Shown: piece by piece, positions 24,415 through 58,458 of the stretch
How positions within the stretch are numbered: position 1 is the stretch's first letter
Layout: every line of letters begins with the position of its first letter
Assembly (NCBI GenBank): GCA_032128875.1
Contig: JAVLKG010000002.1
Location: forward strand, 800,001 to 864,000
Length of the DNA: 64,000 nt
Direction of reading: 5' to 3'
Source of the DNA: Candidatus Melainabacteria bacterium 17Bon1m
Lineage (GTDB): Bacteria > Cyanobacteriota > Vampirovibrionia > Obscuribacterales > Obscuribacteraceae
Made by a program: the position numbers and the translations under genes
Notes under the pieces: model-generated
Seen by the model: only the letters and a program-made list of their open reading frames with translations
What the model was told of the DNA's origin: nothing
The model's database searches: none

Positions 24415-24517
24415 GAAGGTTAATCGTTATCGGTTTACCTTCCAAAAAAAAGAAGTTAAACCGATAACGGTTTTCCTTCCACTGAACCGGAAGTTTATTC
24501 GTTAACGATTAAACTTC
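24415..24517. repeat. Three tandem 28-bp palindromic elements
   Basis: 24415 GAAGGTTAATC-GTTATC-GGTTTACCTTC; 24452 GAAGTTAAACC-GATAAC-GGTTTTCCTTC; 24490 GAAGTTTATTC-GTTAAC-GATTAAACTTC. Confidence 0.9.
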
Positions 24518-24540
24518 TGCGAAATTGTCGAGCGCCTGGC

Positions 24541-25215
24541 TCAATTTTGGCGAAATTTATAGCCCACACCGTGGACGTTTTCGATATGGGAAGGTTGTCC
24601 TTCAGAGTCGATTTTTCTGCGTAGTCTGAGCACCGATGTTCTGACTGTTTCACCTGACGCACCAGCTTCCGACTTCCATACCAGATTGATGAGCGCGTCT
24701 GTCGAATGAACGACTCCGGGTTTGCGCATAAGCACTTCGAGCAAGGAGAATTCTTGCGGAAACAGTTTTACAAGCTCGCCATTTTTCCAAAGCTCATGTT
24801 TGGCAACATCCAGTTCCAAATCGCCACTGCTGAGAACCTCGCTAACCATTTGCGATGGGCGGCGCATCAATGCTCTTAGCCTTGCAGATAGTTCTCGAAT
24901 CTGGAAAGGTTTTGTCAGATAGTCATCGGCGCCGCCGTCTAGTCCTTGCTCTTTATCAGACATGTCTGATCTGCCTGTGAGCATCAGAATGGGGGTTGTG
25001 CCTCCGCCTTTGCGGAATTCCTTTATCAAATCGATACCGACGCCGTCCGGCAAGCCCCAGTCAAGAACGACAGCGTCATAGGTATAGCTTGAAAGCATGG
25101 CTTTTCCATCGGCATAGGTCGAAACCACGTCTACCTTGTGGTGTTCGTGAGTGAGCCATTTTTCGATAACGTCTGCCTGGTGGTCGTCGTCTTCAACGAC
25201 TAAGATTTTCGTCAT
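24541..25215 (-). CDS. OmpR-family response regulator
   Basis: KILVVEDD, LDWGLP, GADDYLTKPF, winged-helix ENVHGVGY; start at ATG (MTKIL). Confidence 0.95.
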   Translation of the reverse strand: MTKILVVEDDDHQADVIEKWLTHEHHKVDVVSTYADGKAMLSSYTYDAVVLDWGLPDGVGIDLIKEFRKGGGTTPILMLTGRSDMSDKEQGLDGGADDYLTKPFQIRELSARLRALMRRPSQMVSEVLSSGDLELDVAKHELWKNGELVKLFPQEFSLLEVLMRKPGVVHSTDALINLVWKSEAGASGETVRTSVLRLRRKIDSEGQPSHIENVHGVGYKFRQN

Positions 25216-25327
25216 AGCAAGATTGTCAGCATCCGGTATTGGTGACACCTGGCGCCATTTTAGCACTATAATTGGATGCAAAGAAAAGCTGCAAATGAGC
25301 GCCCCGTCTGGCGGCGAGGTTTAAAGA

Positions 25328-27217
25328 GTGAAGTGGAAGCTGACACTAAGGCAAAAGGGTCTGCTCGTCGTTGCATTTTTGCTTGGCTTCGAACTGGTTC
25401 TTCTTGGCGGCTTCAGTTATTTACTGCATGATGCCCAAATGCAAATTGACCGTTTGCAGCATGCTCAGCAAGTCATTTCCAGTTTGCAAAGGCTTTCGAC
25501 TCTGAGAGAAAAGTCTACAAATGGATTGATAGTTCAAATTCAGTTTTACAAAGATCCACCCGGAACACGTCGCTACTACGAGACTTTTCAAAAGCATGTA
25601 GATGGAGTGCCGGGAGAATTAGCGACCCTGCACGAGCTACTCAAAGATGATTCAGTGAATCGGTTCAAAGCGGAGGAACTCGAACGCGTTTGTCGCGCGG
25701 GCATGGATGCAATTCAGGAAGAGCGAAAGATCTACTCGATGAAGGAGTCCCTGCAGGAGAAAATCATCATCGCACGCTTGTCCAGCGTCATGTTTCATGC
25801 ATCACGACTGACAGACAATTTAGTCGACTACTACACGAAAATCGAAAAGGATATTTCGCCAATTGAAGAACAGTCACGCGCGCGCTTGGAGCAAGCGGTA
25901 TGGGCGATTATGGTTCTGAACATTGGACTCGCGATCGCAGTAGGGCAATTATTTGTGCGTGGTATCACAAGACGCCTGGCAGTCCTGACGGAGAACAGTC
26001 ACAAGCTGGCAGCCGGAATACCTCTTAATCCGGCAATGGTTGGATATGACGAAATCGCCGTTCTCGACAATGTTTTCCATCGAATGGCTGGAACTTTGGC
26101 AGAATCTGCAAGGAAAGAGCGCGCGATTATCGAGCATGCCGTTGACGTGATTTGTTCGATTGACTCAGACCTCAAATTTCTCGCTGTAAATCCTGCAGCA
26201 GAGACTGTTCTTGGCTATAAACCAGAAGAGATGATTGGAACGCGTTGCGTCGAATATGTGCTTGCTGAGGAGAAAGAAAAGACGACTGCGGCGCTGAAAA
26301 ATATTATTCGAGATCAAGCCGTTCATCAGCTTGAGACTCGTCTGGTCCAAAAAAATGGCTCTGTGATCGATGTACTTTGGTCTATGCAATGGTCGGCGGA
26401 AGAACATGCGCTGTTTTGTGTTGTCCACGATATTTCCGGAAGCAAGGAAATCGAGCGCATGAAACAAGAGTTCATTTCGATGGTCAGCCATGATCTGCGC
26501 ACGCCACTTTCTGCAATTCAGGGCTCTATTGAGCTTTTCAAAGAAGGCATGTACGACTCCAAGGATGAAGCGGGTAAGAGTGCCCTGCAAAAAATGTATC
26601 TGAGCACTAATCGCCTTTTGAGTCTGGTCAACGATCTTCTCGATATCGAAAAGTTGGAAGCGGGCAAAATGGTCAAAGATTTGAGACGTACTGACCTCAA
26701 TGAAGTGATCAAAAAATCGATTGGTTCAGTCGCAGGATTTGCGGAGGTGCATGAAGTCACTATCTCTTATCGCGAACAAGAGATTTTCGTCCTGGCGGAT
26801 GAAGATCGTCTCGTCCAAGCCGTAGTCAACCTGCTGTCCAATGCAATCAAGTTTTCACGAACTCCGTCAACGGTCTGCGTCGAAACAGAGATCATAAAGG
26901 ACGAAGATTCCGGTGATATTCAGCCTTGCTGTGAAGTGCGCATCGTCGACTTCGGGCGCGGAATCAGCGAAGACAAGGTGAAGTCCCTTTTTCAGCGCTA
27001 TAGCCAAGCAGAGAAAAGCGACAATAAGCGCGGCGTCGGAACAGGCTTGGGGTTAGCAATTTCCAAAGCGATTGTCGAATGTCACAACGGAACAATCGGT
27101 GTCAGTAGCAAAGTGGATGAAGGGTCCACCTTCTGGTTTCGAATTCCTTTGTTTGATGGTCCCGAAAGCCAGTCTGGCTCCAGACCTGTGGCTGTAAAGA
27201 TGCAGTCGGGCAATTAA
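25328..27217 (+). CDS. Sensor histidine kinase (periplasmic sensor, HAMP, PAS, HisKA, HATPase)
   Basis: Two TMs, DEI, NPAAE..LGY, SHDLRTPL, NLLSNAIKF, GTGLGL. Confidence 0.95.
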   Translation: MKWKLTLRQKGLLVVAFLLGFELVLLGGFSYLLHDAQMQIDRLQHAQQVISSLQRLSTLREKSTNGLIVQIQFYKDPPGTRRYYETFQKHVDGVPGELATLHELLKDDSVNRFKAEELERVCRAGMDAIQEERKIYSMKESLQEKIIIARLSSVMFHASRLTDNLVDYYTKIEKDISPIEEQSRARLEQAVWAIMVLNIGLAIAVGQLFVRGITRRLAVLTENSHKLAAGIPLNPAMVGYDEIAVLDNVFHRMAGTLAESARKERAIIEHAVDVICSIDSDLKFLAVNPAAETVLGYKPEEMIGTRCVEYVLAEEKEKTTAALKNIIRDQAVHQLETRLVQKNGSVIDVLWSMQWSAEEHALFCVVHDISGSKEIERMKQEFISMVSHDLRTPLSAIQGSIELFKEGMYDSKDEAGKSALQKMYLSTNRLLSLVNDLLDIEKLEAGKMVKDLRRTDLNEVIKKSIGSVAGFAEVHEVTISYREQEIFVLADEDRLVQAVVNLLSNAIKFSRTPSTVCVETEIIKDEDSGDIQPCCEVRIVDFGRGISEDKVKSLFQRYSQAEKSDNKRGVGTGLGLAISKAIVECHNGTIGVSSKVDEGSTFWFRIPLFDGPESQSGSRPVAVKMQSGN

Positions 27218-27223
27218 CCGATA

Positions 27224-27251
27224 GAAGGTTAACCGATAACGATTTACCTTC
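27224..27251. repeat. 28-bp palindromic element
   Basis: GAAGGTTAACC-GATAAC-GATTTACCTTC. Confidence 0.9.
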
Positions 27252-27378
27252 TATGGCATGGTTGTCATTAATTTGTCATTACCGTCGAGATAGATTCAGG
27301 GTACCCCCGGACACATAAAAGCGAGCTACTGGCGCCGGCTAGTGTCGGGCTTTCCCCTTCTAATCAGGCGAGAATGCC

Positions 27379-29514
27379 ATGGAATGCAACGACGGTTTTG
27401 AGATAAAGGTTGGCGAAACGTGTGTGCCGGCGCTTTTGTTTGACCCGCAGCTGATGTGCCGAGTAGAGGAGGCGGACAAACGCCCTTCGCCGTTTCTCCC
27501 AAGCTGTCAAATTGTGGAAACTTGCTCTCCTTCTACAGCTGCTAATCAGTGCACGCAGATAGTACCCGAGCGCAATAATGCAGAATGCACCGTAAAAGAA
27601 TCTTCGGATACTTGGGGCAGAAAGCGTGTTGATGAGACTAACTGCGGTCAATCTCAGCCGTACAAAATTACGATCACGCCGCCAGGCAGCAAGCCGATCG
27701 AGTTTAATTTTAACGGCGAGGAGTATCGTGCTCCGTATAAGAATGAGAAAGGCGAGAACATCGGATACATCGCATATTCCTTGCCTAAGGAATACATCTA
27801 CTACCATAACGATAAAGCGAAAACATCATTTCTCGACATGAAAGACGGTACGCATGTAGTAAAGAAAATTCGCTCTGACTCGGATTATGTCACTACATTT
27901 ACTCATGACGGAAAAACGTTTTTTACTCAAAAGGCGTCCTCTAAAGGCAGAACAGATATGGCGACTTATGCCGATGGAAGTGTTCGCGTTGCACAATACG
28001 ACGGTGACGAGAAACTGACGAAGCAGACGATTACGCACAAGGACGGAACAGTAACTTCACTTGTCAGAGCGAAAGATGGATCTCTTGAAGGCACGCGCAG
28101 AGATAAGCACAATAGAGTTATCGAGGATGTCGTGATGGTCTCCGACTATCCGATGCACAAGCCGGGAAGCGATGATCCAGATGCAGATTATCTGGTCTTT
28201 CGTAATCGCAAAGACGGAGAAATGAGAGCTGTCGCGATGCCGACTGATATCAAATACGACCGCAATGCGCAGTTTCAACCGCTTTCTTACGATTCTAACC
28301 TTGGCACCTTGTCGCTGGTAAACAAAGACGGCAATACGATAGTTGAGTCCAGTCAAGGACGGACCGAAGTGCGTGCAAAGAACGGCACTGTTATTGGTTC
28401 GACAGTCAGCGGCGAATTGTCCTTTTCTTGGCCGGATGGAGATGCCAGCGGAAAGAAAGCATTGGTCGTTCGACCGGATCTTTGTGGCGCGCAATTGAAT
28501 CAAGATGATACTGTTGATCGCTGGTGTCGTGAAATTGAAGATAAAGCGCTCAATGAAAAATTGGAGCCTACGGAAAAGGCGTTTCTGAAGGCGCATGCCG
28601 ACGTAGTCGACACTCGGGACTTCCTAGAAATTCACCGTCGTTTTCGTGGCGACGAAACTAAACTGCGCAATTTCTATTCCAAGTTGTCTGAAATAGATAC
28701 GGTTACAGGATTGAGTCAGAAAGAGAAGAATGCACTCTGCAAAAATCTGATGCATCATGTTGCTCACCCTGAGGAAGTAGTGCAAGGACGTTCTCCAACG
28801 TGCAACGTCGCTGTACTGCAGATCGAGATGGCAAAAGAGCGTCCGACTGAATATGCGGATTTTGTGATTGATGCACTTAAGGCAGATGGAAAACCTTATA
28901 AGGCGATTGGTGGCAAGACTGTTCGTTTTGACGAAGCCAATCTGAAGATGACCGACTTGAGTGGTAGAGACCTTGCCAGTCGTGTATTCCAAACTGCCGC
29001 ACTGCAACTAAATTTCTATCCAGGCGTATTCAAAAACACCGTTGATGGCACGGGCAAGCATGGGCGCGCACAAAAGGAATTTGATGGTCTCAACACCGCA
29101 AATATCGCTGAGCTTCGTTATCAGCTGACCGGCGAAGAAACCGGTGAATGCTGGATTTCATCAGCAGAGGATTTGGAAAAGGCATTGCAGGTAAATGGTG
29201 GCAAACCCGTTGTTATCCGAGTGAACGGAGACCAACCTCCGTTTACCAAAGAGGAAGACAAATCCGACAAAAAAGGTTCCGGCTCTCACGTCGTTATTTT
29301 GAATAGCGTTGAAAGTGGAACACCCAAGCAAGCAAAAATCAGCAATCCATGGGGACCAAAAGCCGGTCCGGACGGCAATGGCTTGACCATGTCGATTGAC
29401 GATCTCTTCAAAAATATGCAGTTTGATACTGAAACAGAATTTGGCATATTGCTCTTGCCAGGAAAGCGCGGAACAACCGGCACAATCGTCAATGGAAAAT
29501 ATGAGCCGCTTTAA
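27379..29514 (+). CDS. Large protein with C-terminal papain-like cysteine protease domain
   Basis: QGRSPTCNV (Q six residues before C), GSHVV, SNPWG; N-terminal beta-rich xxKDGT repeats. Confidence 0.7.
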   Translation: MECNDGFEIKVGETCVPALLFDPQLMCRVEEADKRPSPFLPSCQIVETCSPSTAANQCTQIVPERNNAECTVKESSDTWGRKRVDETNCGQSQPYKITITPPGSKPIEFNFNGEEYRAPYKNEKGENIGYIAYSLPKEYIYYHNDKAKTSFLDMKDGTHVVKKIRSDSDYVTTFTHDGKTFFTQKASSKGRTDMATYADGSVRVAQYDGDEKLTKQTITHKDGTVTSLVRAKDGSLEGTRRDKHNRVIEDVVMVSDYPMHKPGSDDPDADYLVFRNRKDGEMRAVAMPTDIKYDRNAQFQPLSYDSNLGTLSLVNKDGNTIVESSQGRTEVRAKNGTVIGSTVSGELSFSWPDGDASGKKALVVRPDLCGAQLNQDDTVDRWCREIEDKALNEKLEPTEKAFLKAHADVVDTRDFLEIHRRFRGDETKLRNFYSKLSEIDTVTGLSQKEKNALCKNLMHHVAHPEEVVQGRSPTCNVAVLQIEMAKERPTEYADFVIDALKADGKPYKAIGGKTVRFDEANLKMTDLSGRDLASRVFQTAALQLNFYPGVFKNTVDGTGKHGRAQKEFDGLNTANIAELRYQLTGEETGECWISSAEDLEKALQVNGGKPVVIRVNGDQPPFTKEEDKSDKKGSGSHVVILNSVESGTPKQAKISNPWGPKAGPDGNGLTMSIDDLFKNMQFDTETEFGILLLPGKRGTTGTIVNGKYEPL

Positions 29515-29725
29515 CTGAATTGTCATCAAATTGTAACTCTTAGGCTCATATACTCAATACATCAGAGGCGCATGCACTGCGGTGTTTGCTTCACTGATGA
29601 CGATGCGGTTCTCACCGCCCCTTTGAAGAAACGCCAATTCTCAAGGAATAAAACATTCGGCAGAGCGGTTTGCCTGCGAACACATCGCTTTGCCGAATTA
29701 CCAAATTTTTGTACGGGACAGCCGA

Positions 29726-29753
29726 GAAAGGAGGGTTTAACAACCCTCCTTTC
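29726..29753. terminator. Probable terminator hairpin between convergent genes
   Basis: GAAAGGAGGGTT-TAAC-AACCCTCCTTTC. Confidence 0.6.
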
Positions 29754-29796
29754 GCCATGGTGATGATAGTGGAAGCTCTGATTCCAATTTGGGCCG

Positions 29797-30978
29797 CTAC
29801 GATACGGCTGATTCCAAATAAGTCAGCGTACCCTTGCCAGCGTCCAGCCTGACTCGTACGCCAATTGGTGCTGTTAACGACCTGGCTGATTGACCAAGCG
29901 GCATTCCGAAACAACACGGCTTGTTCACAACTTTCATTCTGTCGCCGAAAAGATCTTCTATCGAGTACATGTTGAAGCATTCTTCCGTGCGGCAGTTCTC
30001 GAAGTCTCCCAGAGCGACCGCTGAGGCGTCGTTGAGTGCACCGGCAAGATATAGGTTGGTAAACCAGCGATCAAGTATGCCGTGATCTTCGTTTATGTCT
30101 TCCAAAAACAAAACCGCGTTCTTAAATGATGGCTGATATGGAGTGCCCATGAGAGAACCCAGAGCGGTCAAGTTTCCGCCCAGGAGAGGTCCTTCGGCTG
30201 CACCGTCTACTGCAGCGTACGAATATGCGATTTGAAATTTGTCGTCGGGAATGCGTGCCTTTGATTTTGAGGAACCATCGAACGCTGATTCTAAGGCCCA
30301 ATAGTTTGACTGCACTGCCGGCAAATTCTCTTTGGAGGTGACTGCCAGCTTCATTGCATCAAAGGATTGTTGGCTGGAAATTCGATCCATATTTGGCGCG
30401 TGAAACGTAACCACCCCTGTCATCGCATGAGCAGCGAGAAGAATATGGCAGTTGTCGTCGCTTCCGGCAATTACCTTGGGGTTTCTCTTCAGCAGTTCCC
30501 AATTGATTTTGTCAACCAAATGCAAGGCGCCATAACCGCCTGTAATGCAGAAAATACCGGCGATACTGTCGTCGCTGAGCGCATCACTAAAATCAGACAA
30601 GCGTTCGTCATCGGTGCCAGCCATTGCGCCATAAATCTTCAAAACGTTTTTGCCAACTACCGGTTTGAATCCCATTTTCTCAACGATTGCTCTAGCTCTG
30701 TTTACTGCAGCCGGATTGTGAGGGCGTCCACTAGGTGAAAGGAGAGCAACTTTGTCGCCTGTCTTCAACGCCTTGGGTTTGATTGCGCGTTGGGCTTGTG
30801 ATTTTGATGCAATGGTGGCATTTTCTTCTTTGCCCGCAGTTTTTCCTTGTGCCACCTTATTCATTCCTTGTGAAAAAATTGTCGCTGATATTAGTGCCTT
30901 AGTGCCGCTGTGAATCAGACTTCGCCTGGACAGCAGTTTATGAGTATTTGTGTTTTCGGGGCCGGCTCTGTGAGACAC
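29797..30978 (-). CDS. S66 (LD-carboxypeptidase) family protein with degenerate catalytic residues, Tat signal
   Basis: KPKALK.GD.V, AGTD.ER, GGNL, LFLED; GSDD in place of GYSD, LGQ in place of GH; SRRSLI Tat-like motif. Confidence 0.85.
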   Translation of the reverse strand: MSHRAGPENTNTHKLLSRRSLIHSGTKALISATIFSQGMNKVAQGKTAGKEENATIASKSQAQRAIKPKALKTGDKVALLSPSGRPHNPAAVNRARAIVEKMGFKPVVGKNVLKIYGAMAGTDDERLSDFSDALSDDSIAGIFCITGGYGALHLVDKINWELLKRNPKVIAGSDDNCHILLAAHAMTGVVTFHAPNMDRISSQQSFDAMKLAVTSKENLPAVQSNYWALESAFDGSSKSKARIPDDKFQIAYSYAAVDGAAEGPLLGGNLTALGSLMGTPYQPSFKNAVLFLEDINEDHGILDRWFTNLYLAGALNDASAVALGDFENCRTEECFNMYSIEDLFGDRMKVVNKPCCFGMPLGQSARSLTAPIGVRVRLDAGKGTLTYLESAVS

Positions 30979-30990
30979 TTCTCGTTACCC

Positions 30991-32268
30991 TTAAAGAGTT
31001 GCGCTCTCTTCGATTTTGAATCGAACACCATTATCCGTTGCCTCAAGGGATGCCATCACCCCTAGTGGTATGGTGAATTTTTCTTTGCTGTGACCAAAAC
31101 GCAGTCCATAGATAACAGGTATTCCTAGCCCGCTGAGACGCTGCTCGAGGATTCGATCTAGGCTGAAATTGAGCGGAAAACTGTTTCTTCCGCTGCCGCC
31201 GGGATTGCAATTGGTGCATTCTCCTACAACAATTCCGGCTGCCTTTTCCAGCTTTCCTGCCAGGTGAAGCTGATAAAGCATGCGATCGATTTCGTGAGGT
31301 TCTGCGTCCAGATCTTCAAGGAACAATATCTTTCCTTCCGTATCAATTTCATATGGCGTGCCCATCAACTGCCGAATAAGCGTCATGCAGCCGCCGGTCA
31401 ATCGCCCGCGCGCTTTTCCTTTAGCAATGACAAAGCGTGTGGGCGGACCTTCCGGATTCCAGAGTTCCTTTTCTTCCTTGTCCGTGACCACTCCGATCGG
31501 CTTGTTGTTCATCACCGCTTTTAGATAATTGTGATAGGTGTAAGAACCTTCAAAGAAGCCGCCCATCATTGGTCCGTGAAAAGTTACGAGTCCTGTCTTC
31601 TGATGAATTGCGATAAGAAAAGAAGTGATGTCTGAGTAGCCGACTATTATCTTCGGGTTTTTTGCTATCAAGTCATAATCGATCCCGTTGAGTAGTCTTG
31701 CGGCTCCATTTCCGCCGCGCATCGGCATCACAGCTTTGACTTCAGGATCAGCCCACATGGCGTTGAAGTCGGCGATTCGATTCTCGTCACTTCCTGCAAA
31801 GTCACTATAACTGTCGAACAGATGCTTGCCGACCTTATACTTGAGCCCTACTTTTTTCAGCCACTGGTAAGTGTATTCAATCTCTGATTCGTTTTCTAAG
31901 GGGCTGGCTGGCGCGACAATGCCTACAGTGTCGCCTTTTACCAAGTGTTTTGGTTTTATGATGTTGGCTGCACTGGATGTCGGCATTCCATTTTTTTGCT
32001 CATGTCTACTGTTTTTGCCTGAGCTATTCGCTCTTTCAGACTTGTTCTTGACTGTGTTTTGGATCTTGTCCTTGTCGTTCTCTTTTTCGTTCGATTTGGC
32101 GTCAGCCTTATTTCCTGTGATGCCGACCATAAGAGCAGTGGCAATTCCCGAGAGAAGGTCACGCCTCGGTAGGCGCTCACCGTTCATAACAGATGACGAA
32201 AACGGCAGGTTTTGAGAAAGCTCCATGCTACATACCCGACTAAAAGGGCGACAGCGAGATTTTAGCAT
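30991..32268 (-). CDS. S66 LD-carboxypeptidase, Tat signal
   Basis: RGG, GYSDIT, FHGP, LFLED, FGH triad motifs intact; RRDLL Tat-like motif; start probably at MELSQ or MNGE. Confidence 0.9.
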   Translation of the reverse strand: MLKSRCRPFSRVCSMELSQNLPFSSSVMNGERLPRRDLLSGIATALMVGITGNKADAKSNEKENDKDKIQNTVKNKSERANSSGKNSRHEQKNGMPTSSAANIIKPKHLVKGDTVGIVAPASPLENESEIEYTYQWLKKVGLKYKVGKHLFDSYSDFAGSDENRIADFNAMWADPEVKAVMPMRGGNGAARLLNGIDYDLIAKNPKIIVGYSDITSFLIAIHQKTGLVTFHGPMMGGFFEGSYTYHNYLKAVMNNKPIGVVTDKEEKELWNPEGPPTRFVIAKGKARGRLTGGCMTLIRQLMGTPYEIDTEGKILFLEDLDAEPHEIDRMLYQLHLAGKLEKAAGIVVGECTNCNPGGSGRNSFPLNFSLDRILEQRLSGLGIPVIYGLRFGHSKEKFTIPLGVMASLEATDNGVRFKIEESATL

Positions 32269-32357
32269 TGTATAAGTTTTGCCGGCATCCCCTGTAAGTC
32301 TTTGCTGGCGGACCTTTACGAGCAGAATTATTGGTTTTGACTGGCTTGTTCGCTCGA

Positions 32358-32381
32358 TAGCAAAGTGATATCATTTTGCTA
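32358..32381. promoter_or_regulatory. Palindromic operator upstream of the SPFH-Arc operon
   Basis: TAGCAAAGTGAT|ATCATTTTGCTA, 24 bp with one mismatch. Confidence 0.65.
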
Positions 32382-32418
32382 GCGGTTCGATATTAATTCC
32401 GCAGCGAGGACATCGAAA

Positions 32419-33309: not shown

Positions 33310-33416
33310 AAGAGATCTCTGAATTATCCGATTCTCCGTATAAAGCATAACCACTAAACGACTGGACGAGCGAGCAACCGAGCAGCCCGATAGCCAAAAG
33401 AAAATAGAGGATTCCC

Positions 33417-33614
33417 GTGTCTCGAAAATCATTTCTTCTGCGAATAGATCAAAAGCTCTACGACGAAATCGAATCGTGGGCACAGCAAGAAATGCGCAGT
33501 GTCAACGGGCAAATTGAGTACATACTTCGCCAGGCGACCCTTAAGTACAAGGGAAAGGGCGGCATCCTCGATTTGAGAACCGGGCAGAAAGAGATGAATG
33601 ACACCCTGGATTGA
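33417..33614 (+). CDS. Arc-like ribbon-helix-helix DNA-binding protein
   Basis: KSFLLRID..LY.....WA..E.RSVNGQIEY.L; GAGG RBS. Confidence 0.85.
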   Translation: MSRKSFLLRIDQKLYDEIESWAQQEMRSVNGQIEYILRQATLKYKGKGGILDLRTGQKEMNDTLD

Positions 33615-33860
33615 GTGGGTTTCCTGGGTGCCGCGGTATGCGTTAGTCTCGGAAATCTTGCCAAGCAGTCCTGTTTTTGCTGGCTTATCGACATTAAACG
33701 TCCGCGCAGGTGGCATCAGTACACCGCAAAAGCCTGTCGACTGTATATCTTGCATCTTTTTAGGCAGACGGATTTCACATCGTAAGTTATAGTTATCAGT
33801 TCTGACTCTAGATTTTGAGTCAAGAACTTCTCATAACGGTAGCTCTCAGTCAAAAGTGTC

Positions 33861-42975: not shown

Positions 42976-43003
42976 GAAGGTAAACCGTTATCTGTTTACC
43001 TTC
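42976..43003. repeat. 28-bp palindromic element
   Basis: GAAGGTAAACC-GTTATC-TGTTTACCTTC. Confidence 0.9.
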
Positions 43004-48160: not shown

Positions 48161-48170
48161 GATGACCCTA

Positions 48171-48198
48171 GAAGGTAAACCGTTAACGGTTTAACTTC
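48171..48198. repeat. 28-bp palindromic element
   Basis: GAAGGTAAACC-GTTAAC-GGTTTAACTTC, 10 bp after the fusA stop. Confidence 0.9.
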
Positions 48199-48210
48199 CA
48201 AGCAAGTATC

Positions 48211-48239
48211 AAGGCAGCCGGTAAAATCGGCTGCCTTTT
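48211..48239 (+). terminator. Intrinsic terminator after fusA
   Basis: AAGGCAGCCG-GTAAAAT-CGGCTGCCTT then TT. Confidence 0.85.
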
Positions 48240-48379
48240 GCTTTATAGGAATTGATCTTGATTTCTTGATGCCGGCTTGAACTGGCAGCGCTTTTCAATG
48301 GTATAAAATTTCCTCCAGGACCCAGCGAGATGGTCCACCTTGGCATCGCCAATAAGCCTTTGTTTCTCAGGAGTTTTCG

Positions 48380-48790: not shown

Positions 48791-48922
48791 ATTACAAATT
48801 CTCCACTGCGTTCAAGTGCGTTCAAGTTCTTGAGCAGGCTTAATAGCTTGCTCAGGCTTTAGTCATCGGTCTGGTCAGTCATAGCTGAAGTTTCAGTCAG
48901 GACCACAAGATTCGGTAATAGC

Positions 48923-50149: not shown

Positions 50150-50158
50150 GGAATTACC

Positions 50159-51550: not shown

Positions 51551-51551
51551 C

Positions 51552-52166
51552 TTATTTTTTCTCGCTTCCTGTTTGTTGCATAAGGTCCTCAGGTAGTTCG
51601 CCGCTTTTGAGCTTATCCAGTTCTTCCAATTGAGCGGGACTGAGTTTTGCCTGAATTTCCTCCCAGATTGAAAGTCTTTTGCTCCTTAGTTTTTGCAACA
51701 TATTGCGCGCTTTCAGCAGCAACTCAAATTCGTCAGATTTAGTCATCATATCCATTTGAGGCTCTTCTTTGCTCAACATTCTTTCAATCAGTTTGGCGGA
51801 CATTTTTTTGCGCAGCTCATTAAACTCTTGATTCAAGGGCGTGAGTTCGGCACGCCCTTTTTCGTAAGCTTTGACGACTGCCTCGCGCTGTTTTCCGTTT
51901 AGCGAGCCGATCAGTCTTACCTGCTCTAAATCCGGCGTTCCGGCTTGAATAAATATGCGTATTTCGTCTGCCGGTCTGGAATTTATTTTGTACTTGGGCA
52001 ACACTTCGGCAATATTTGCAGGACCGGAGAAAATAGTTTCTTCGGCGTTTGGTGGACTGAATTTCTGGCTCGAATTCGCCGTTTTCTCAAGCGCAAAACA
52101 GTCGGTTTGTGCTGAGAAAAATAGACTGACAGTAATCAATGCGGCTTGCCCGATTTGTTTTGTCAT
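51552..52166 (-). CDS. Exported helical protein, Spy/CpxP-like
   Basis: Signal peptide; LNGKQR and LSPAQ motifs resembling LTxxQ repeats. Confidence 0.55.
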   Translation of the reverse strand: MTKQIGQAALITVSLFFSAQTDCFALEKTANSSQKFSPPNAEETIFSGPANIAEVLPKYKINSRPADEIRIFIQAGTPDLEQVRLIGSLNGKQREAVVKAYEKGRAELTPLNQEFNELRKKMSAKLIERMLSKEEPQMDMMTKSDEFELLLKARNMLQKLRSKRLSIWEEIQAKLSPAQLEELDKLKSGELPEDLMQQTGSEKK

Positions 52167-52171
52167 CGCTT

Positions 52172-54466
52172 CTAACCTTGCGGTCGGTTGCCTGACGATA
52201 CGGTTTCTCCGGAGTCGCTAAGCAGCTCACGACAGCGTTTTAGCATAATGCTGGTCGGCAGATCTGAAGGCACCATTTTCAATATGGTTGAGAATAACTG
52301 CTCCGCTTCTTTGATGTCTCCTTCGTCGAAACTTTGCCTTGCGTTTCGGTAGATTGCTATAGCTTCTTCCATAGCTGCAGGCAATGAGCCTCGAGTGGTC
52401 AGCAGCTCATAAAGCGATTGTTTATCGCCCGAACCACTTAGAATGATGCTGTCGATTTGTCTCACTTCAAGAGTATCTTCGACGAGGTGTGCTGTTCCTG
52501 AACCTAAGATAAAACTTGTTCCGTACGTGTTATTTAGTGCTTCTAGTGCCAGCGCCTGTTCAACCGGGTCGCCCATGACGCTGTATTGCGCGAACTGAGT
52601 ATCTCGAGAACCCGCATCGATGGTTCCACAAAAGGCTTCACCGGTTTCGATACCGCAAGATGAGCGCAAAGCAAGGGAGGCTAGATCGTCCGTTTGTGTT
52701 TCGCAGTAATTGTTTATTTTGTCTTTGATTGATAGCGCGCACTGCGCCGCTTGCCTGGCTTGCTCATTGCCAGCCAAAGGCAACGGTGCCCCCCAAAAGG
52801 CAATTACTCCGTAGGAGGCAATTCTGTCGACTATTCCGCGATGTTCAAAAACCTCATTCACCATAATGCCAAGGCAATCATTGAAGATTTGAAATATTCT
52901 GTCCGGTGGAAGTGGATCGACCTGATCCATGAAGTCGCGTACGCGGCAAACCATAACGGTTACCTGACAGCGCTTTCCATCGAGTCCAAGTTCGGCTAGC
53001 TGCGCTCGGTCTATCTGGTGAGCAATGTGTTTTGCAGTCATTGAGCGGAATAGTCGCGTGTGCCTTCGTCGCTCCCTAAAGAAATAAAAGTTTTGATCGG
53101 CCAGAACCAGCAGCCAACAGGGAATAACAACTGCTGTTATCGGCACTACAGTTGGTATCACTTGCCCGAAGTTGAGAAACAGGAAGAACGAAATTGCAAA
53201 CCAACCCAGAGAAATTCCGGCAATCGAAAGGAAGCTTCCCAACGGTCGACCAACAAGTATTCCAAGTACTTGTCCACATGCGAGCGCAGCTATAAGAACT
53301 GCGATGATTATTTTCCATCGTGAATTTGGAGGCAGGCATTTGCCGCTTACTAGATTTGAAATGATATTGGCCTGAATTTCAATAGCCGGCATGCGATTAT
53401 CAAATTCGGACACTGGTGTCGCAAAGCTTGATTCGTAAATCGGTGATTGTCGCGGTTGGTTACTGCCTGTGTCCATAAAGCTGCTTTCACCAAAGCCGAT
53501 TAAAACGACTTTGTGTAAAAACGGGCTGTTGGTTGTACCGCTGGAAGTATCATTTGTTTTTGCAATAGTGGCTGACGATTGAAAATGTTTTTGCCAATCA
53601 AGTGCTCGCCATAATGGAATTGTAGTAAAACTGCCTTTGCCGCCTGCATAGTTGATACGGAATTCTGCAGGAAAAATTTTGTCTTTGAGAAAGACACGGT
53701 CGTGCCCTTGATCGACCATCGATCTTGCACCCAGAAATTTTTCAGCCACTCTTAGCGCAAATGATTTGTAGAAAGCTGTTGAATGACCGAATTTTTCAAA
53801 AACCAAAAAGGCTTTTCGAACTAGACCATCTCGGTCTACAGGGATGTACGCGTTACCCAAGCAGGCTCCGTCAGCGCCCAATGCCACGACGAATTGTTCG
53901 TAAGGCGCGTGTACTCGCGGCTTTGATTTATTCCCTGTGCCACCCTCCAGCGTATCGACATTAGTGGAGACGACAATGTTTTTCACTCTCTTGAAGACGT
54001 CGCGCAGGATCTCATCTTCTTTTTCAATGGCTCGGCTTTCCGTTTGGTTTAAACGATTTGATTCGCCAGATGGTTCTTCCAAATCGACATCGAAACCAAT
54101 TACCTCAGCGCCACCTTTCGTAAGTTGATCTATGGCACGGGCAAATAAAGTTCGATTCCACGGCTGCTTGGAATTCAGTCCCAAGCGTCTTGCAGATTCA
54201 GGGTCAAGCGTAACTAGAACAACTGAGTTTGTTTCCTGTGCGCGCTTTTCTTTATAGGACTCAAGACCGTCTCTGAAGCGAATAAAGTGATCGGTTACTG
54301 AATTTTCGAGTGTTATTAACGAGTCTGAAAGAAAAGGAACGTTGAAGAATTCGATTGAAAGAACCGCAATTCCCACAAAAAAACAGACAGCCAGCGCGCG
54401 CCAAGAGAGGTCCTTCGACGAAACGCCGACAACTTTCGACACCTTTTTTGCCAAACCATCTTTCAT
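52172..54466 (-). CDS. CHASE2 plus class III cyclase-like protein with degenerate active site
   Basis: CHASE2 (PW.R..FA, GA.VIGFD, D.DGLVR, INY.G, E.QAN), three TMs, cyclase fold (AFWGAP, GI.TG, YGT), C-terminal TPR-like helix pair. Confidence 0.85.
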   Translation of the reverse strand: MKDGLAKKVSKVVGVSSKDLSWRALAVCFFVGIAVLSIEFFNVPFLSDSLITLENSVTDHFIRFRDGLESYKEKRAQETNSVVLVTLDPESARRLGLNSKQPWNRTLFARAIDQLTKGGAEVIGFDVDLEEPSGESNRLNQTESRAIEKEDEILRDVFKRVKNIVVSTNVDTLEGGTGNKSKPRVHAPYEQFVVALGADGACLGNAYIPVDRDGLVRKAFLVFEKFGHSTAFYKSFALRVAEKFLGARSMVDQGHDRVFLKDKIFPAEFRINYAGGKGSFTTIPLWRALDWQKHFQSSATIAKTNDTSSGTTNSPFLHKVVLIGFGESSFMDTGSNQPRQSPIYESSFATPVSEFDNRMPAIEIQANIISNLVSGKCLPPNSRWKIIIAVLIAALACGQVLGILVGRPLGSFLSIAGISLGWFAISFFLFLNFGQVIPTVVPITAVVIPCWLLVLADQNFYFFRERRRHTRLFRSMTAKHIAHQIDRAQLAELGLDGKRCQVTVMVCRVRDFMDQVDPLPPDRIFQIFNDCLGIMVNEVFEHRGIVDRIASYGVIAFWGAPLPLAGNEQARQAAQCALSIKDKINNYCETQTDDLASLALRSSCGIETGEAFCGTIDAGSRDTQFAQYSVMGDPVEQALALEALNNTYGTSFILGSGTAHLVEDTLEVRQIDSIILSGSGDKQSLYELLTTRGSLPAAMEEAIAIYRNARQSFDEGDIKEAEQLFSTILKMVPSDLPTSIMLKRCRELLSDSGETVSSGNRPQG

Positions 54467-54627
54467 CTGGAACCTTTGCCAGAAGATATCAGCGGGAGGC
54501 CTTTCCCGGGTAATTGGACATATTCCCTGTTTTGAAGCCTATTAAGTAGCCAAGCAATTAATAAGCTCTTCTGATAGCCGAGCCTGTCAAGTGAAAAATC
54601 GCCATTGAACGCTTGGACAAGGCTGTA

Positions 54628-54655
54628 GAAGTTAAAGGGTTAACGATTTAACTTC
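54628..54655. repeat. 28-bp palindromic element
   Basis: GAAGTTAAAGG-GTTAAC-GATTTAACTTC, extended by CTGTA/TACAG flanks. Confidence 0.85.
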
Positions 54656-54760
54656 TACAGCTCTGCGTCCTTGACAATTGAAAAGCGCCGCAAGGAAAGC
54701 CGGCAGACTTTTAGACGGCGTCCGATAACTGCTCGAAGGCTAGATTTAGGTAGTAAAAAA

Positions 54761-54833
54761 TGGACAGTACTGGATTCGAACCAGTGACCCCCACTATGTC
54801 AAAGTGGTGCGCTACCAACTGCGCCAACTGTCC
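54761..54833 (-). tRNA. tRNA-Val(GAC)
   Basis: Reverse complement GGACAGTTGGCGCAGTTGGTAGCGCACCACTTTGACATAGTGGGGGTCACTGGTTCGAATCCAGTACTGTCCA. Confidence 0.96.
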
Positions 54834-54960
54834 ACGGGAAAACCTTGGAAGAGACATTCTATCGTGCTCGGTGCCAGAGGTAAACCGCTGCCGTTACTCT
54901 TAGACACTTGAGATAAATTACAGCCAGACCGCTGCAATCCAGGGTTTTCTTGAATTAAAT

Positions 54961-55034
54961 TGGAGGCGGCACCCAGATTTGAACTGGGGGTGAAGGTTTT
55001 GCAGACCCTTGCCTTACCACTTGGCTATGCCGCC
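54961..55034 (-). tRNA. tRNA-Cys(GCA)
   Basis: Reverse complement GGCGGCATAGCCAAGTGGTAAGGCAAGGGTCTGCAAAACCTTCACCCCCAGTTCAAATCTGGGTGCCGCCTCCA; CCA encoded. Confidence 0.97.
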
Positions 55035-55194
55035 GCAACCAGTAAAAGCTTATCGTAGACGGTCTGTTTCCAGCTTGTCAAAAAAGGCCAAACTTTTCCA
55101 AAGTTTGTAAGCGGGAATGAAGCCTGTATCATACGACTTGGCTGAATGCTGTTTCGAACGGCAGCGGCTTCATTTGCGCTGAAGGAGAATCGGC

Positions 55195-56217
55195 TTGCTT
55201 GAACTGTTGCTCAGACGATGTCTGCAAGCAGTTCCGCTGCTGGCTATCTTATCAATTGTCACATTCGCTGCTGTCCTGAGCCTTCCGGGAGACCCGGTAG
55301 ATGTGCTTGTTGGCAATGCTCAGAAAGATATGGATCCCCAAGAAATACAAGTATTAAGGCAGGAATTCGGTCTCGATAAATCACCAGTTGAGCAATATTT
55401 ACTCTGGCTATCGAATGGTGTGTTCAAGGGGAATTTAGGCAGGTCGTATAAAGACGGTCGGCCTGTTGTGACGATCATTCAGGAGCGACTCCCTTCGACA
55501 ATACGATTAGTCGCAACGGCTCTTATTCTCGCTTTTGCAGTAGGGATGTTTTGGGGGCTGGCGATGGTAGCACTCAAGCAGTCGCAGCTTGGAAAGTGGG
55601 TCGAGGCGGTCCTTTTCGTTACCGCGCTAATTTTGTACTCGGCTCCGGGATTTTGGATTGGTTTTATTGCCCTGACGATGGCTGGACGAATCAGTGCATT
55701 TGGTGATGTTCCTCTATTGGCTGTTCATGCCGCTGGCTCTCCACCTCTGAATCCGATGGTCGCGTTTTCAGCGCTTAGTTATGTTTTGCTGCCGGCGTTC
55801 GTTTTGTCGCTTAGGCGAATGGCGAAAATCGCACTTTTCGTCCGAACGGCTACTCTGAATGAATTAGCCGAAGAGTATGTGACAACGGCACTAGGCAAAG
55901 GTCTTTCTCGAGTGCGCGTCTTGACCAGACATGTTCTGAGAAACAGTCTGGCTCCGATTATTAATCTGGCAGGACTTTCCCTTCCGTCATTGTTAGGCGG
56001 GTCGGTATTGATTGAAACAGTGTTTGCCTGGCCTGGCATGGGCAGACTGGCTGTCGAATCTACATTCGGAAGAGACTATCCGATGATTCTGGCTCTTGTG
56101 ATGATGTACGGTGCTCTAGTTATTTTTTCCAATATGGCTGCAGATGTTCTTGAGCTAATGACTGATCCTCGCAGGCGTGATGCCTATCTTTCAGAGATTG
56201 AAGGAGCCAGAGCCTGA
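55195..56217 (+). CDS. oppB: Peptide ABC transporter permease
   Basis: PGDP, GLDKS..QY, GNLGRS, EAA loop (EYV.TA..KGL), ETVFAWPGMG, RDYP. Confidence 0.92.
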   Translation: MLELLLRRCLQAVPLLAILSIVTFAAVLSLPGDPVDVLVGNAQKDMDPQEIQVLRQEFGLDKSPVEQYLLWLSNGVFKGNLGRSYKDGRPVVTIIQERLPSTIRLVATALILAFAVGMFWGLAMVALKQSQLGKWVEAVLFVTALILYSAPGFWIGFIALTMAGRISAFGDVPLLAVHAAGSPPLNPMVAFSALSYVLLPAFVLSLRRMAKIALFVRTATLNELAEEYVTTALGKGLSRVRVLTRHVLRNSLAPIINLAGLSLPSLLGGSVLIETVFAWPGMGRLAVESTFGRDYPMILALVMMYGALVIFSNMAADVLELMTDPRRRDAYLSEIEGARA

Positions 56218-57152
56218 TGTCGCAAGCCAGATTTGCTATCTCCGATCCGCGCCACAGCTCAATTCGTATGTGGGTTGGTGCACTTTTAATCGCTTTGGTG
56301 TTCTCATCTGCTCTTTTGGCTCCATTAATTGCACCGTCGAAGACATTACTCTGGCCTGTGCCTGTGAATTTGGAGGCGATCAACTTGCCGCCGTTCAGCC
56401 AAGGTCATGTGCTGGGCACGGACTTGCTGGGGCGGGATATTCTTGCCGAAGCGCTCTGGGGCGCTCGTATGTCTTTGGTAATAGGAATAGTGGCAGCTGT
56501 GACTGCCGTTACATTTGGTGGCGTATGGGGTGCTCTATCGGCTTTCCTTGGCGGGCCAATCGACACTCTAATGATGCGCTGCGTTGACGGTTTATTAGCG
56601 ATTCCAAATATAGTTTTGCTGCTGACAATAAACACCATTCTTTCGGCTGGTTCGTTTTGCTCCTTTCCTGATTGGTCTTTGCGTTTTCTGAAAGTAACTT
56701 CTTTCTCAAGTGGCTATTTGCCGCTATTCACTGTCATTGTTGTAATCAGTGCAACTACTTGGTTAGAAGCTGCGCGAATAAGCCGATCAAAGATACAGTC
56801 GATTCTTCTGGAAGAGTATATATACTCGGCAAAAGCGCTCGGAATCGGAGTTCTACGCATGCTCTTTCGGCATTTACTGCCAAATGCGGCGCCAGTTCTA
56901 CTTGTCGAGGCAACTCTTCTTGTTTCAGATGCAATTTTGATGGAAGCCGGATTAAGCTTCCTGGGGCTGGGATTGGGGCCGTCGACACCAAGCTGGGGCA
57001 GCATGTTAACGTCTGCTCAGTCGAGTTTGATTGAAGGGAACTGGTGGGCCGTTATGGTGCCGGGGGTGTTAATCACTACAACTGTAGTAGGAGTAAATCT
57101 TGTCGGAGAGGGCATCCTGGAAGGACAGGGCGGCAAAAGGCAGGCTGCGTGA
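56217..57152 (+). CDS. oppC: Peptide ABC transporter permease
   Basis: H.LGTD.LGRD, GAR.SL, HLLPN, EAGLSFLGLG, PSWG.ML. Confidence 0.92.
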   Translation: MSQARFAISDPRHSSIRMWVGALLIALVFSSALLAPLIAPSKTLLWPVPVNLEAINLPPFSQGHVLGTDLLGRDILAEALWGARMSLVIGIVAAVTAVTFGGVWGALSAFLGGPIDTLMMRCVDGLLAIPNIVLLLTINTILSAGSFCSFPDWSLRFLKVTSFSSGYLPLFTVIVVISATTWLEAARISRSKIQSILLEEYIYSAKALGIGVLRMLFRHLLPNAAPVLLVEATLLVSDAILMEAGLSFLGLGLGPSTPSWGSMLTSAQSSLIEGNWWAVMVPGVLITTTVVGVNLVGEGILEGQGGKRQAA

Positions 57153-57237
57153 GTGTTGTGAAAGGTTGATTCCATTCGGATACAATTACAGTCAGCCTAG
57201 AATTGAACGTTTAGTAGTAAGGAGCAAGTTTCTCGCG

Positions 57238-57762
57238 ATGAAAAAATGTCTTGCCGAAAAGGCGAAGGTTCGCAAGCTTGCCATTCTGGTTTTGCCACTG
57301 GCAGTTTTTTGCCTCACTGCTTGTGGAAACAGCAAAGATGTTACCTACAAATCCGGCGGAATGACACACACGATCGCCCAGGGCGAAGGGTCAATTCCCG
57401 ACGAATTCAAAGCTCTAATCTATCCAGATGCGCAGGCAACAGGCTCTGTGTCTGCAGATGGAAACGATCAAGAGCAGTCGAAATTCGTTATGTTGCAGGC
57501 AAAGGCTACAGCTGAAGACGTCAGCAAGTGGTACCAAGAACAGCTGCAAAACAATGGATGGACGGTTGGAAATGTTCAAAACAGCGCCGATGTAATTAGC
57601 ATCAGCGCTCAAAAGAAAGACATTGAAATGAACGTCATGATTGATGAAGACCAAGGTAAGACCACAATAAATCTCTCGCTGGCAAAAACAGTGGATCAGG
57701 TGCCTGACGAATCAGAAACTGAGAATTTTGTACCGAATAAAGCAGCGCCACCAACGGACTAA
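57238..57762 (+). CDS. Lipoprotein
   Basis: Basic N-terminus, hydrophobic core, LTAC lipobox; IYP.A and WY..QL..NGW motifs. Confidence 0.75.
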   Translation: MKKCLAEKAKVRKLAILVLPLAVFCLTACGNSKDVTYKSGGMTHTIAQGEGSIPDEFKALIYPDAQATGSVSADGNDQEQSKFVMLQAKATAEDVSKWYQEQLQNNGWTVGNVQNSADVISISAQKKDIEMNVMIDEDQGKTTINLSLAKTVDQVPDESETENFVPNKAAPPTD

Positions 57763-57776
57763 CTCAGCGAGGAAAA

Positions 57777-58406
57777 ATGCCTCACGATAATGCACCACTT
57801 GCCGAAGTGATCTCTTCGTCCATTACTGGTGTGGTGGCACAGTGTTTGATGTCTTCCGACAAGGACGGGATGCCCGATACGCCCAAGCCACGTTTTGGCA
57901 GTTTCTTGAAAATCCGTACTGTTAGTAATCTAGATGTTTTAACTGTTGTGCATAATGTCATAACAGGCTCTCCTGATGCTGTGCACCAACCCTGGGCACT
58001 AGGGCTTTCACGCGAACAGTTACGAGAAGAGCAACCGCATATTTTTTCTCTTTTGCGAACGGAAGTTCATGCAGTTGTTGTCGGTTACATCGAAGGCGGC
58101 CATGTATTTCAGCATTTGCCGCCTGTACCACCCGAGGTGCATGATTTTGTGTATTTAGCCAGCGATGAAGAAATTCGTCAGGTTACGGAAGGCTTTGATT
58201 TCCTGCGATTGATTGCGACAGTCACAACAGTTCCACAGGATGAGCTGGCTGCAGCGAGTATTCGCGAAGCACATAAGGCACATGGGAATGACTATTCATT
58301 TCTAGTTGAAGCGGGACAAGCGCTATCGCATGTTTTCAAAAACGATTTCGATCGACTCGTAACGATCTTACGCAAGATTCGCCCGGGAACACCTGCTCGC
58401 TCGTAG
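57777..58406 (+). CDS. HAS-barrel domain protein
   Basis: AEVI..S.T..VAQC, P.FGSF, LS..QL..EQP.IF.LL.T, Q.LPP.PP.VH. Confidence 0.75.
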   Translation: MPHDNAPLAEVISSSITGVVAQCLMSSDKDGMPDTPKPRFGSFLKIRTVSNLDVLTVVHNVITGSPDAVHQPWALGLSREQLREEQPHIFSLLRTEVHAVVVGYIEGGHVFQHLPPVPPEVHDFVYLASDEEIRQVTEGFDFLRLIATVTTVPQDELAAASIREAHKAHGNDYSFLVEAGQALSHVFKNDFDRLVTILRKIRPGTPARS

Positions 58407-58430
58407 CGCGAAATGGAGCATTGAGGTTTA

Positions 58431-58458
58431 GAAGGTTAACCGTTATCGGTTAACCTTC
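58431..58458. repeat. 28-bp palindromic element (perfect arms)
   Basis: GAAGGTTAACC-GTTATC-GGTTAACCTTC. Confidence 0.92.

Follow-up and report, generated by a model that had tools for sequence, protein, structure and literature searches.

Why should 28 bp palindromes be gathered between the genes of one chromosomal region, and what recognises them? The question is raised by a 64,000-nucleotide stretch of DNA (the window) from Candidatus Melainabacteria bacterium 17Bon1m, in which an initial annotation had listed eight such palindromes. The host is an uncultured, non-photosynthetic member of the Melainabacteria (Obscuribacteraceae, class Vampirovibrionia). Its fusA gene is closest, among named relatives, to Candidatus Obscuribacter and Melainabacteria assemblies (76-80% identity), two of the records at 80% bearing other labels. 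Its genome (G000; 93% complete) is assembled as 7.55 Mb in 35 contigs, the window being C2:800001-864000; related genomes are referred to by similar handles (G001, G003, G007, G011 etc.), and C numbers denote contigs. We find that a palindrome lies next to a gene for a protein with a winged helix, that paralogues of this gene each stand at the centre of a palindrome family of their own, that protein and motif have a common distribution, and that the palindromes of related genomes keep their positions while their sequences change in concert. Comparison of the sequences suggests that the palindromes are probably the cognate double-stranded DNA (dsDNA) sites of the protein encoded at window positions 58566-59588 and of its family, and we predict that this protein binds them.

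Palindromes and their probable partner gene

All eight palindromes are where the initial annotation placed them, are exactly 28 bp long and have GAAG...CTTC ends, and their centres are as it counted: GTTATC in three (24415, 42976 and 58431), GATAAC in two (24452 and 27224) and GTTAAC in three (24490, 48171 and 54628). The pattern GAAG-N20-CTTC occurs at ten places in the window, these eight, a ninth family member at 14109-14136 and an unrelated match at 59410, and five window copies match the consensus with three or fewer mismatches, compared with 0.00 expected from 100 shuffles. The annotation of the palindromes as intergenic also stands, with all nine outside the open reading frames (ORFs) accepted as genes using Pfam and a crude codon-usage gene caller of our own, from which the gene contexts given below are taken. 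The central TA of the 11-6-11 layout is invariant and the centres are sometimes asymmetric.

A position weight matrix (PWM) built from copies gathered with a degenerate expression was scanned over the whole genome, and recovers 20 copies with scores of 35.8-47.0 bits, with the next match at 25.3 bits; a shuffled genome gave two matches at 10 bits or more. Nine of the 20 are inside the window (binomial p 3e-14) and 12 are within 195 kb (C2:814-1009 kb; p 9e-15), and these therefore constitute a small, sharply bounded local family and not a genome-wide repeat. The initial annotation had anticipated a genome-wide element at about one locus per 10 kb, which is wrong for 20 copies in 7.55 Mb, and had named a lack of enrichment outside the window as the result that would count against it; this is largely what the concentration of nine copies in the window and 12 within 195 kb amounts to. 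Its suggestion of a genome-wide REP-like element fares no better, with only 20 copies and a lone weak match to a Y1 (HUH) transposase (PF01797, 25.4 bits) in the genome, on a contig (C12) that has no copy. The proposal to look for a co-distributed recombinase or RAYT was productive in part, in that it led to the transposase-derived gene beside the copy at 58431, but no tyrosine recombinase or RAYT is tied to the copies. The information content of the 20 copies is 44.7 bits, and their 220 arm pairs include 195 Watson-Crick pairs, 24 mismatches and one G-T. There is also a decayed copy at C2:~337.9 kb with a 1 bp deletion and several substitutions, of which the orthologous copy in G011 (C1:377042) is intact.

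Two relatives, G017 and G024, have one and two matches respectively to the strict pattern GAAG-N7-GWTAWC-N7-CTTC, and both hold 20 matches to a shorter core motif. About 80 bp downstream of a strict match in both genomes (one of the two in G024) is a gene encoding a protein of 327-362 residues with a DprA-type winged helix (35% identical to each other), and the homologue in the window is the gene at 58542-59588, downstream of the perfect copy at 58431; we refer to its product as P0001. The true start is probably the methionine at codon 9 (Met9, 58566), as indicated by the orthologue alignment, a profile match beginning at 858566 in G000 and a ribosome-binding-like GAGGGA motif before Met9; the longest ORF opens just 1 bp past a conserved -10-like block. 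In an alignment of ten orthologous upstream regions, TTGAAC and CGTATTCAAA blocks are invariant between the palindrome and the start, and these promoter-like blocks recur upstream of paralogues 2 and 3 (see below). The promoter-like element in the window begins 52 bp downstream of the 58431 28-mer, and was not called in a sigma-70 scan.

The arrangement of palindrome and gene is present in all ten of the orthologous loci (group 1) for which there is upstream sequence. We inspected 30 genes of the protein family from 13 genomes of the genus and seven other genera, 28 with at least 280 bp of upstream sequence and two with too little, and 24 of the 28 have an upstream palindrome with the core CCG-WTAW-CGG or a near variant, with arms of 12-32 bp and no more than one mismatch, most of them 65-88 bp from the estimated start. 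A 25th case (G015:C209) has a core site ~70 bp upstream of the gene, and G018 and G102 show the same arrangement. The single palindrome is upstream only, with none after the stop codon. No partner gene (e.g. one encoding a ParA-like ATPase) was found to be shared by the neighbourhoods of the three G000 paralogues.

The genomes compared are samples that are mutually related, and absence here means that the searched genomes gave no match. The core motif AASCGWTAWCGSTT is present in 20 of 24 genomes of the bacterial family and in none of 16 outside it, with control motifs giving 0-3 matches per genome. The full-length protein is found in the same ten of 13 genera as the core motif, and the other three genera hold neither. 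A class-wide profile search found the protein in 40 of 47 genomes of the bacterial family, and gave no match among 153 genomes that represent ten other families.

P0001 has an N-terminal helical pair, a zinc ribbon (C55, C58, C74 and C77), a helix-turn-helix (HTH), an acidic linker, a winged helix (residues ~199-258) and a C-terminal helical tail. In an alignment of 28 sequences the four cysteines are invariant and no aspartate is, so the DDE triad is not kept. Pfam recognises the winged helix only (DprA_WH, E 5e-7). Comparison of the alignment by hhalign with the sole full IS1595 transposase of G000 (on C13, the only match to the DDE domain PF12762 in that genome) gives a probability of 97.9% (E 5e-13, 268 columns). 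The NCBIfam IS1595 transposase model matches below threshold, at model positions 2-57 and 172-208 of 215 only; the IS1595 zinc-ribbon and HTH head is thus recognised by its four cysteines and by hhalign, and neither the NCBIfam nor the Pfam family model is matched above its cut-off. A search of a large protein collection lists 24 close members, unnamed or generically named, followed by an IS1595 "transposase-like protein" (E 2.4e-6), and the family comprises 641 clusters at 50% identity (E up to 1e-30), without annotation and with a few generic source names. Clusters of hypothetical Melainabacteria proteins are listed in the ESM Atlas, which also gives a structural match to an IS1595 transposase with a template-modelling score of 0.51 over 235 residues. 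An AlphaFold2 model of P0001 (predicted local distance difference test score 82.7, predicted template-modelling score 0.71) has a segment, residues 190-266, that matches winged-helix regulators of the ArsR/SmtB, MarR, HlyU and MecI types (Z ~10, root-mean-square deviation 1.5-2 Å, ~60 residues); Foldseek against the PDB returned no match at E ≤0.001, the best (0.03) being to winged-helix regulators. On these alignments and the model, we read P0001 as a descendant of an IS1595 transposase in which the DDE core has been replaced by an ArsR/MarR-like winged helix, with the head and C-terminal tail retained.

Site families of the paralogues and their positions in relatives

There are three paralogues in G000, each inside a ~200 kb cluster of its own version of the palindrome. 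The group-1 gene, at C2 858.5 kb, has 12 of the 20 copies described above around it. The second (C4:502.4-503.4 kb) has a 28 bp family, GAAAAAAGRYCGTTAACGRYCTTTTTTC, with 14 copies, 13 of them at C4:419-629 kb and one upstream of the gene, and the third (C3:856.6 kb) has the family AACCGAATCGWTAWCGATTCGGTT, with nine copies at three or fewer mismatches, all at C3:741-953 kb. The group-2 sites likewise cluster around the orthologous gene in G011 (12 of 13) and G007 (7 of 11). Two examples come from other genera: G018 has ~50 core sites over 130 kb around its gene, with intergenic arrays of 2-6 sites at periods of 40-84 bp, and G102, on one contig, has 18 core matches in 72 kb around one paralogue and at least ten in 82 kb beside another. 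The number of paralogues per genome varies from one to at least ten.

The core CCG-WTAW-CGG is common to all of the paralogues and the outer arms are paralogue-specific (GAAGKTWAA in the window). Upstream of paralogues 1 and 2 the promoter-like blocks, the flanks and a GTTGTCAGTA box are common to both, but the 28-mers have different arms, which indicates that the module was duplicated with the gene as a unit and that the site then diverged with the protein. Copies with AAAGC...GCTTT arms are upstream of a fourth paralogue in G003 (C134:10557) and G010 (C199:5823); AAAGC-armed copies are also present in G000 (C6:52796, C6:95977 and C21:445), where the fourth paralogue was not found, which might be explained by orphan sites or by a gene missing from the assembly.

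Contig C2 has a GC skew of one sign from end to end, which means that no skew switch falls at the window. The cumulative skew of C4 peaks at ~540 kb, inside the paralogue-2 cluster, and may mark the replication terminus. A link between the clusters and the terminus was considered and dropped, with the G102 clusters being 0.45 and 1.1 Mb from dnaA and 75 kb of G018 showing no clear skew.

The strict pattern is present in 11 of the 12 other genomes of the genus with 6-26 matches each (controls 0-1), and variant forms are found in other genera of the bacterial family. The consensus is species-specific and changes are mirrored in both arms; one example is the copy at 14109, which differs from its G011 orthologue by mirrored changes in the two arms. 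The positions are nonetheless old, while the sequence changes: copies at about -34, -21, -5.2, +6.4, +10.2 and +23 kb from the fusA copy recur at these offsets in G011, G007, G003 and G010 as far as the contigs reach. The 42976 copy (~-5.2 kb) keeps its offset in G011, G007 and G003, and the 54628 copy (~+6.4 kb) in G011, G007 and G010. The 27224 position is occupied in four of nine orthologous loci (G000, G011, G007 and G003) with species-specific arms in each, and at the position of the tandem trio (Table 1) no copy was found in the G007 or G003 loci. A copy follows fusA in ten of the 11 genus loci that hold the 3' end of the gene; in G001, the most distant species, there is a different hairpin at this position.

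The group-1 protein evolves quickly, with orthologues in the genus 40-55% identical (89% in G011) compared with 90-100% for fusA, and the sites appear to follow. Among nine related genomes, the fusA copy has 2.4 differences from the gene-proximal copy of its own genome and 4.1 from those of other genomes (permutation p 0.0012). Between G000 and G011 the sites differ at 36 of 420 positions and the 60 bp flanks at 365 of 1800 (unaligned ends being counted as differences), the sites being about twice as conserved as their flanks. No insertion differences were found between these two genomes in the 15 single-copy loci compared, all of which are shared, as is the tandem locus. The centre of the 58431 copy is flipped between the two orthologues.

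Predicted binding and alternative explanations

If P0001 binds as a dimer, as the palindromes suggest, two subunits with two DNA-reading modules each would cover 28-30 bp, one module reading the core CCG-WTAW-CGG and the other the paralogue-specific outer arms. The gene-proximal site, ~50 bp upstream of the promoter-like element, might then serve in autoregulation, and the other sites, at fixed intergenic positions within ~50-150 kb of the gene, would follow in sequence the drift of a fast-evolving protein. A local array that structures or anchors the chromosome is a possible role for the sites, to be taken tentatively; that a selfish copying process left them as relics or passengers, which the protein has kept, is somewhat doubtful, and transcriptional insulation or regulation seems unlikely. 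A bolder and rather doubtful proposal is that the dead-transposase paralogues each "bar-code" 100-200 kb around their own gene with private 28 bp palindromes, forming nucleoprotein domains, such that a new organiser of chromosome domains would have been born from IS1595 with rapid co-evolution of protein and site.

Several observations weigh against the proposed binding and its roles. The support is wholly comparative, and since the compared genomes are kin the counts overstate their independence. The site does not cover the core promoter, being 52 bp upstream of the -35-like hexamer, which leaves autoregulation speculative. The ~45 bits of the copies exceed the ~19 bits that a regulator needs for 20 sites in G000, and fit common descent by copying as well as they fit selection. 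The five strict copies in G015 map to a region orthologous to G000 C11, which is to say new positions across genera; these call for a copying mechanism, of which a protein lacking the DDE domain is not obviously the source. The mirrored changes at 14109 could reflect hairpin-templated repair in place of selection by a dimer. There are exceptions to a one-to-one specificity, with the two paralogues of G009 carrying the same upstream 28-mer; eight of the 20 group-1 copies are not on the contig of the gene; G000 has no paralogue that matches the AAAGC-armed copies of C6 and C21; and G001 (77% complete) has two distant paralogues and no core motif. Fast evolution, variable paralogue number and the lack of a consistent link to origin or terminus also argue against a core chromosomal role.

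A different account of the same pattern overlaps with the favoured reading on binding and departs from it on why the sites exist: the palindromes would be selfish micro-repeats of the REP/REPIN or minimal-MITE (miniature inverted-repeat transposable element) kind, two abutted transposon ends copied locally, with the neighbouring gene a domesticated partner and no host function for the sites. The copies are extragenic only and occur in every intergenic context, have a very high information content and a species-specific consensus, and include tandem arrays; each cluster has the gene-proximal copy in its middle, which is what local hopping out of a master copy would produce, the partner is of transposase descent, copies are at new places in other genera, and the one on C2 has decayed. 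However, the partner has no DDE triad, the full IS1595 transposase on C13 shows no matching ends, the flanks of the copies have no visible target-site duplications, and G000 and G011 show no insertion differences; unlike pure relics, the sites keep their positions across the genus while their sequences track the protein, and they are more conserved than their flanks. We regard it as unlikely. Less probable again are operators of an ordinary transcription-factor regulon, with the protein repressing or activating the genes beside each copy. The gene-proximal copy upstream of a conserved promoter-like element, the ArsR/MarR-type winged helix and the location of some copies 60-130 bp upstream of gene starts all agree with this, but the genes beside the copies share no theme, the fusA copy is between the stop codon and a terminator, and G018 has arrays of up to six sites between convergent genes. 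Moreover, the 38 loci of the three G000 families comprise 10 convergent, 17 tandem and 11 divergent gene arrangements (by our own gene calls), roughly as in random intergenic placement, which fits neither promoter operators nor terminators, and in six group-1 tandem loci the copy is 6-47 bp from the upstream stop and not near the next start.

Nine of the 18 group-1 loci have a copy within 60 bp of a stop codon, and the fusA copy would be transcribed ahead of a terminator, which raises the prospect that the palindromes act in the RNA, as hairpins of 3' untranslated regions that serve to stabilise transcripts or as points of processing or termination, and to which an RNA-binding protein may attach. 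The predicted folds (-6.6 to -17.9 kcal/mol, z -3.1 to -6.8) and the maintenance of pairing through arm changes across species are consistent with this. The arm pairs nevertheless fit a dsDNA site better, as the initial annotation had argued: only one of the 25 non-Watson-Crick arm pairs is G-T, and copies directly past stop codons have G-A, C-A and G-G mismatches. Copies are also in divergent promoter regions, most lack a U tract (a T run on the minus strand is present only at the 24452 copy), Rfam finds three tRNAs and nothing else in the window, and a hairpin leaves the clustering around a DNA-binding gene and the paralogue-specific arms unexplained; an RNA role is very improbable. Four public "RNA-Seq" runs (one sample) cover the region, but their contigs of 16-148 kb and even depth show that they behave like genomic DNA and are uninformative on transcripts and 3' ends. 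Least probable, to the point of being barely tenable, are core sites at which a recombinase, of the tyrosine (Xer/dif-like, 11-6-11) or serine type, would invert or excise the intervening DNA. The layout, the invariant central TA, the sometimes asymmetric centres and the flip between G000 and G011 at 58431 speak for this, and the palindromes resemble XerCD dif/pdif in being 28 bp and writable as 11-6-11, a likeness in length and layout; they differ from them in copy number (20), location, partner enzyme and the lack of rearrangement. The centres in other species are symmetric (GATATC or GTTAAC), so asymmetry is not a conserved feature. The housekeeping genes rpsL, rpsG, fusA and smpB lie between copies, the order and spacing of which are kept in G011, G007, G003 and G010, none of the eight PF00589 genes of G000 is in the window or beside a copy, and the conserved neighbour has no recombinase domain. 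Contigs of the four runs cross the copies at 42976, 48171 and 54628 collinearly, which is weak evidence, as contigs drop rare variants, and the sole joint is a repeat match to the 871178 copy. The XerCD/dif-like reading of the initial annotation is not upheld, in view of the lack of an adjacent PF00589 gene, the collinearity in four relatives and the absence of rearrangement from the run contigs at three copies.

Returning to the binding of palindromes by P0001 and its paralogues, three kinds of known system invite comparison. REP/REPIN sequences and their RAYT transposases, reportedly the subject of work by Nunvar et al. in 2010 and by Bertels and Rainey in 2011, are to our knowledge the only well-known bacterial parallel to a domesticated transposase with dispersed sites, though of another enzyme class. 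They too are short extragenic palindromes with invariant terminal tetranucleotides, a lineage-specific consensus and a vertically inherited, transposase-derived single-gene partner beside copies, with several paralogues each having its own repeat family. The partner here is an apparent derivative of IS1595 (DDE-type) without the catalytic core and not a Y1/HUH enzyme, and there are 9-20 copies per family, not hundreds, within ~100 kb of the gene rather than genome-wide and at positions stable in the genus. IS1595 transposases themselves have a zinc ribbon, HTH and C-terminal tail homologous to those of P0001, which has a winged helix in place of the DDE domain; its gene has no flanking inverted repeats, its predicted sites are stand-alone palindromes among housekeeping genes, and it is kept vertically in one bacterial family. 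Truncated transposase derivatives such as IS1 InsA and Tn5 Inh bind transposon ends as inhibitors, and P0001 is similar in being a DNA-binding head without catalysis.

The third comparison is with ParB/parS and MatP/matS, in which region-confined sets of palindromic sites are bound by dimeric HTH-type proteins. For RacA and ram of Bacillus subtilis, 25 regions are described that span -412 to +200 kb, with binding enhanced where sites are clustered (PMC4914108). In all three, as here, ten to a few dozen palindromic sites are within a few hundred kb and partly clustered, and confinement to a region holds for all three G000 families and recurs in G011, G007, G018 and G102. The protein family here is unrelated and fast-evolving, the sites are 28 bp compared with 13-16 bp, one genome holds several paralogous systems with a gene at the centre of each, and a link to origin or terminus is not shown (the group-1 cluster is not at a skew switch, the C4 cluster spans a skew maximum, and the G102 clusters are 0.45 and 1.1 Mb from dnaA). 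By behaviour, such region-restricted centromere-like sets as RacA/ram seem the nearest analogy. ParB_N (PF02195) was found in two of the 41 genomes of the class that were searched and not in G000, in which a 16-base parS consensus has seven scattered matches at two or fewer mismatches, none of them perfect.

We know of no description of site families clustered each around its own gene, and no published account of the palindrome or the protein family was found in the literature on Obscuribacter and Melainabacteria, IS1595 domestication or cyanobacterial dispersed repeats. Should binding be confirmed, this would be a bacterial DDE transposase domesticated into a sequence-specific DNA-binding protein with sites dispersed among core genes. 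The divergence of paralogues and sites after duplication would offer a natural series for the evolution of protein-DNA specificity, and the way in which each site family gathers around its own gene could bear on chromosome organisation in a lineage where ParB was not found.

Features of the window and other repeats

The palindromes and associated features of the window are listed in Table 1. The three tandem copies are between convergent genes, Nnr (ending at 24360) and a response regulator (ending at 24541). The 44-mer at 58423..58466 has a predicted RNA fold energy of -28.5 kcal/mol, and a scan of 58300-58650 called no intrinsic terminator. An intrinsic terminator (GC-rich stem and U tract) was also considered for the palindromes in general and rejected, the terminator-like hairpin after fusA being a separate element.

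Table 1. Coordinates of palindromes and related features in the window.
Feature	Position	Strand	Remarks
Ninth palindrome copy, GAAGGTTAATGGTTAACCATTTACCTTC	14109..14136	.	PWM 38.0 bits; missed by the initial annotation; upstream of a TonB-like/Fur-family gene pair
Three tandem palindrome copies	24415-24442, 24452-24479, 24490-24517	.	Period 37-38 bp
Palindrome copy	27224..27251	.	6 bp past the stop of a PAS histidine-kinase gene
Palindrome copy	42976..43003	.	Between smpB (minus strand) and a GNAT gene (plus strand)
Palindrome copy (fusA copy)	48171..48198	.	10 bp past the fusA stop, 12 bp ahead of a terminator-like hairpin
Canonical GC-rich terminator-like hairpin with T tail	48211-48237		Downstream of the fusA copy; separate element
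Palindrome copy	54628..54655	.	Between the start of a CHASE2 gene (54466, minus) and two tRNA genes
Two tRNA genes	54761-54833 and 54964-55034	-	
Palindrome copy, the sole perfect one in the window	58431-58458	.	Flanks extend the palindrome to 44 bp, near-perfect (58423..58466)
Promoter-like element	58510..58540	+	TTGAAC (58510-58515), 19-nt spacer, TATTCA (58535-58540)
Gene of the proposed binding protein P0001	58542..59588	+	348 residues as ORF; 340 from Met9 (58566-59588)

Other repeats were noted in passing. Between the histidine-kinase stop near the 27224 copy and the next gene (27379-29514) is a direct repeat, TTGTCAT-N4-TTGTCAT (window 27262-27279), that is recognisable in all nine orthologous loci of the genus and resembles an OmpR/PhoB-type response-regulator box that would belong to the neighbouring two-component pair. 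A separate family of 20 bp perfect palindromes, GGG-NNN-CGCATGCG-NNN-CCC, is found throughout G000; its copies number on the order of 100 and are often repeated in tandem every 25 bp (e.g. C1:138/163, C3:4393/4417 and C18:5219/5243/5299); the variable triplets stay complementary, and the family looks REP/BIME-like. The full IS1595 element on C13 was inspected, and no inverted repeats resembling the palindrome arms were seen at its ends. A third kind of palindrome, 26-29 bp long with the form (A)CTCCGAAAAA...TTTTTCGGAG(T), has ~19 copies in G000, many of them on C5 (C5:87-274 kb), and two of its copies (L150:2284-2309 and 2417-2442, on C13) are 250-400 bp downstream of the sole full-length IS1595 transposase ORF.

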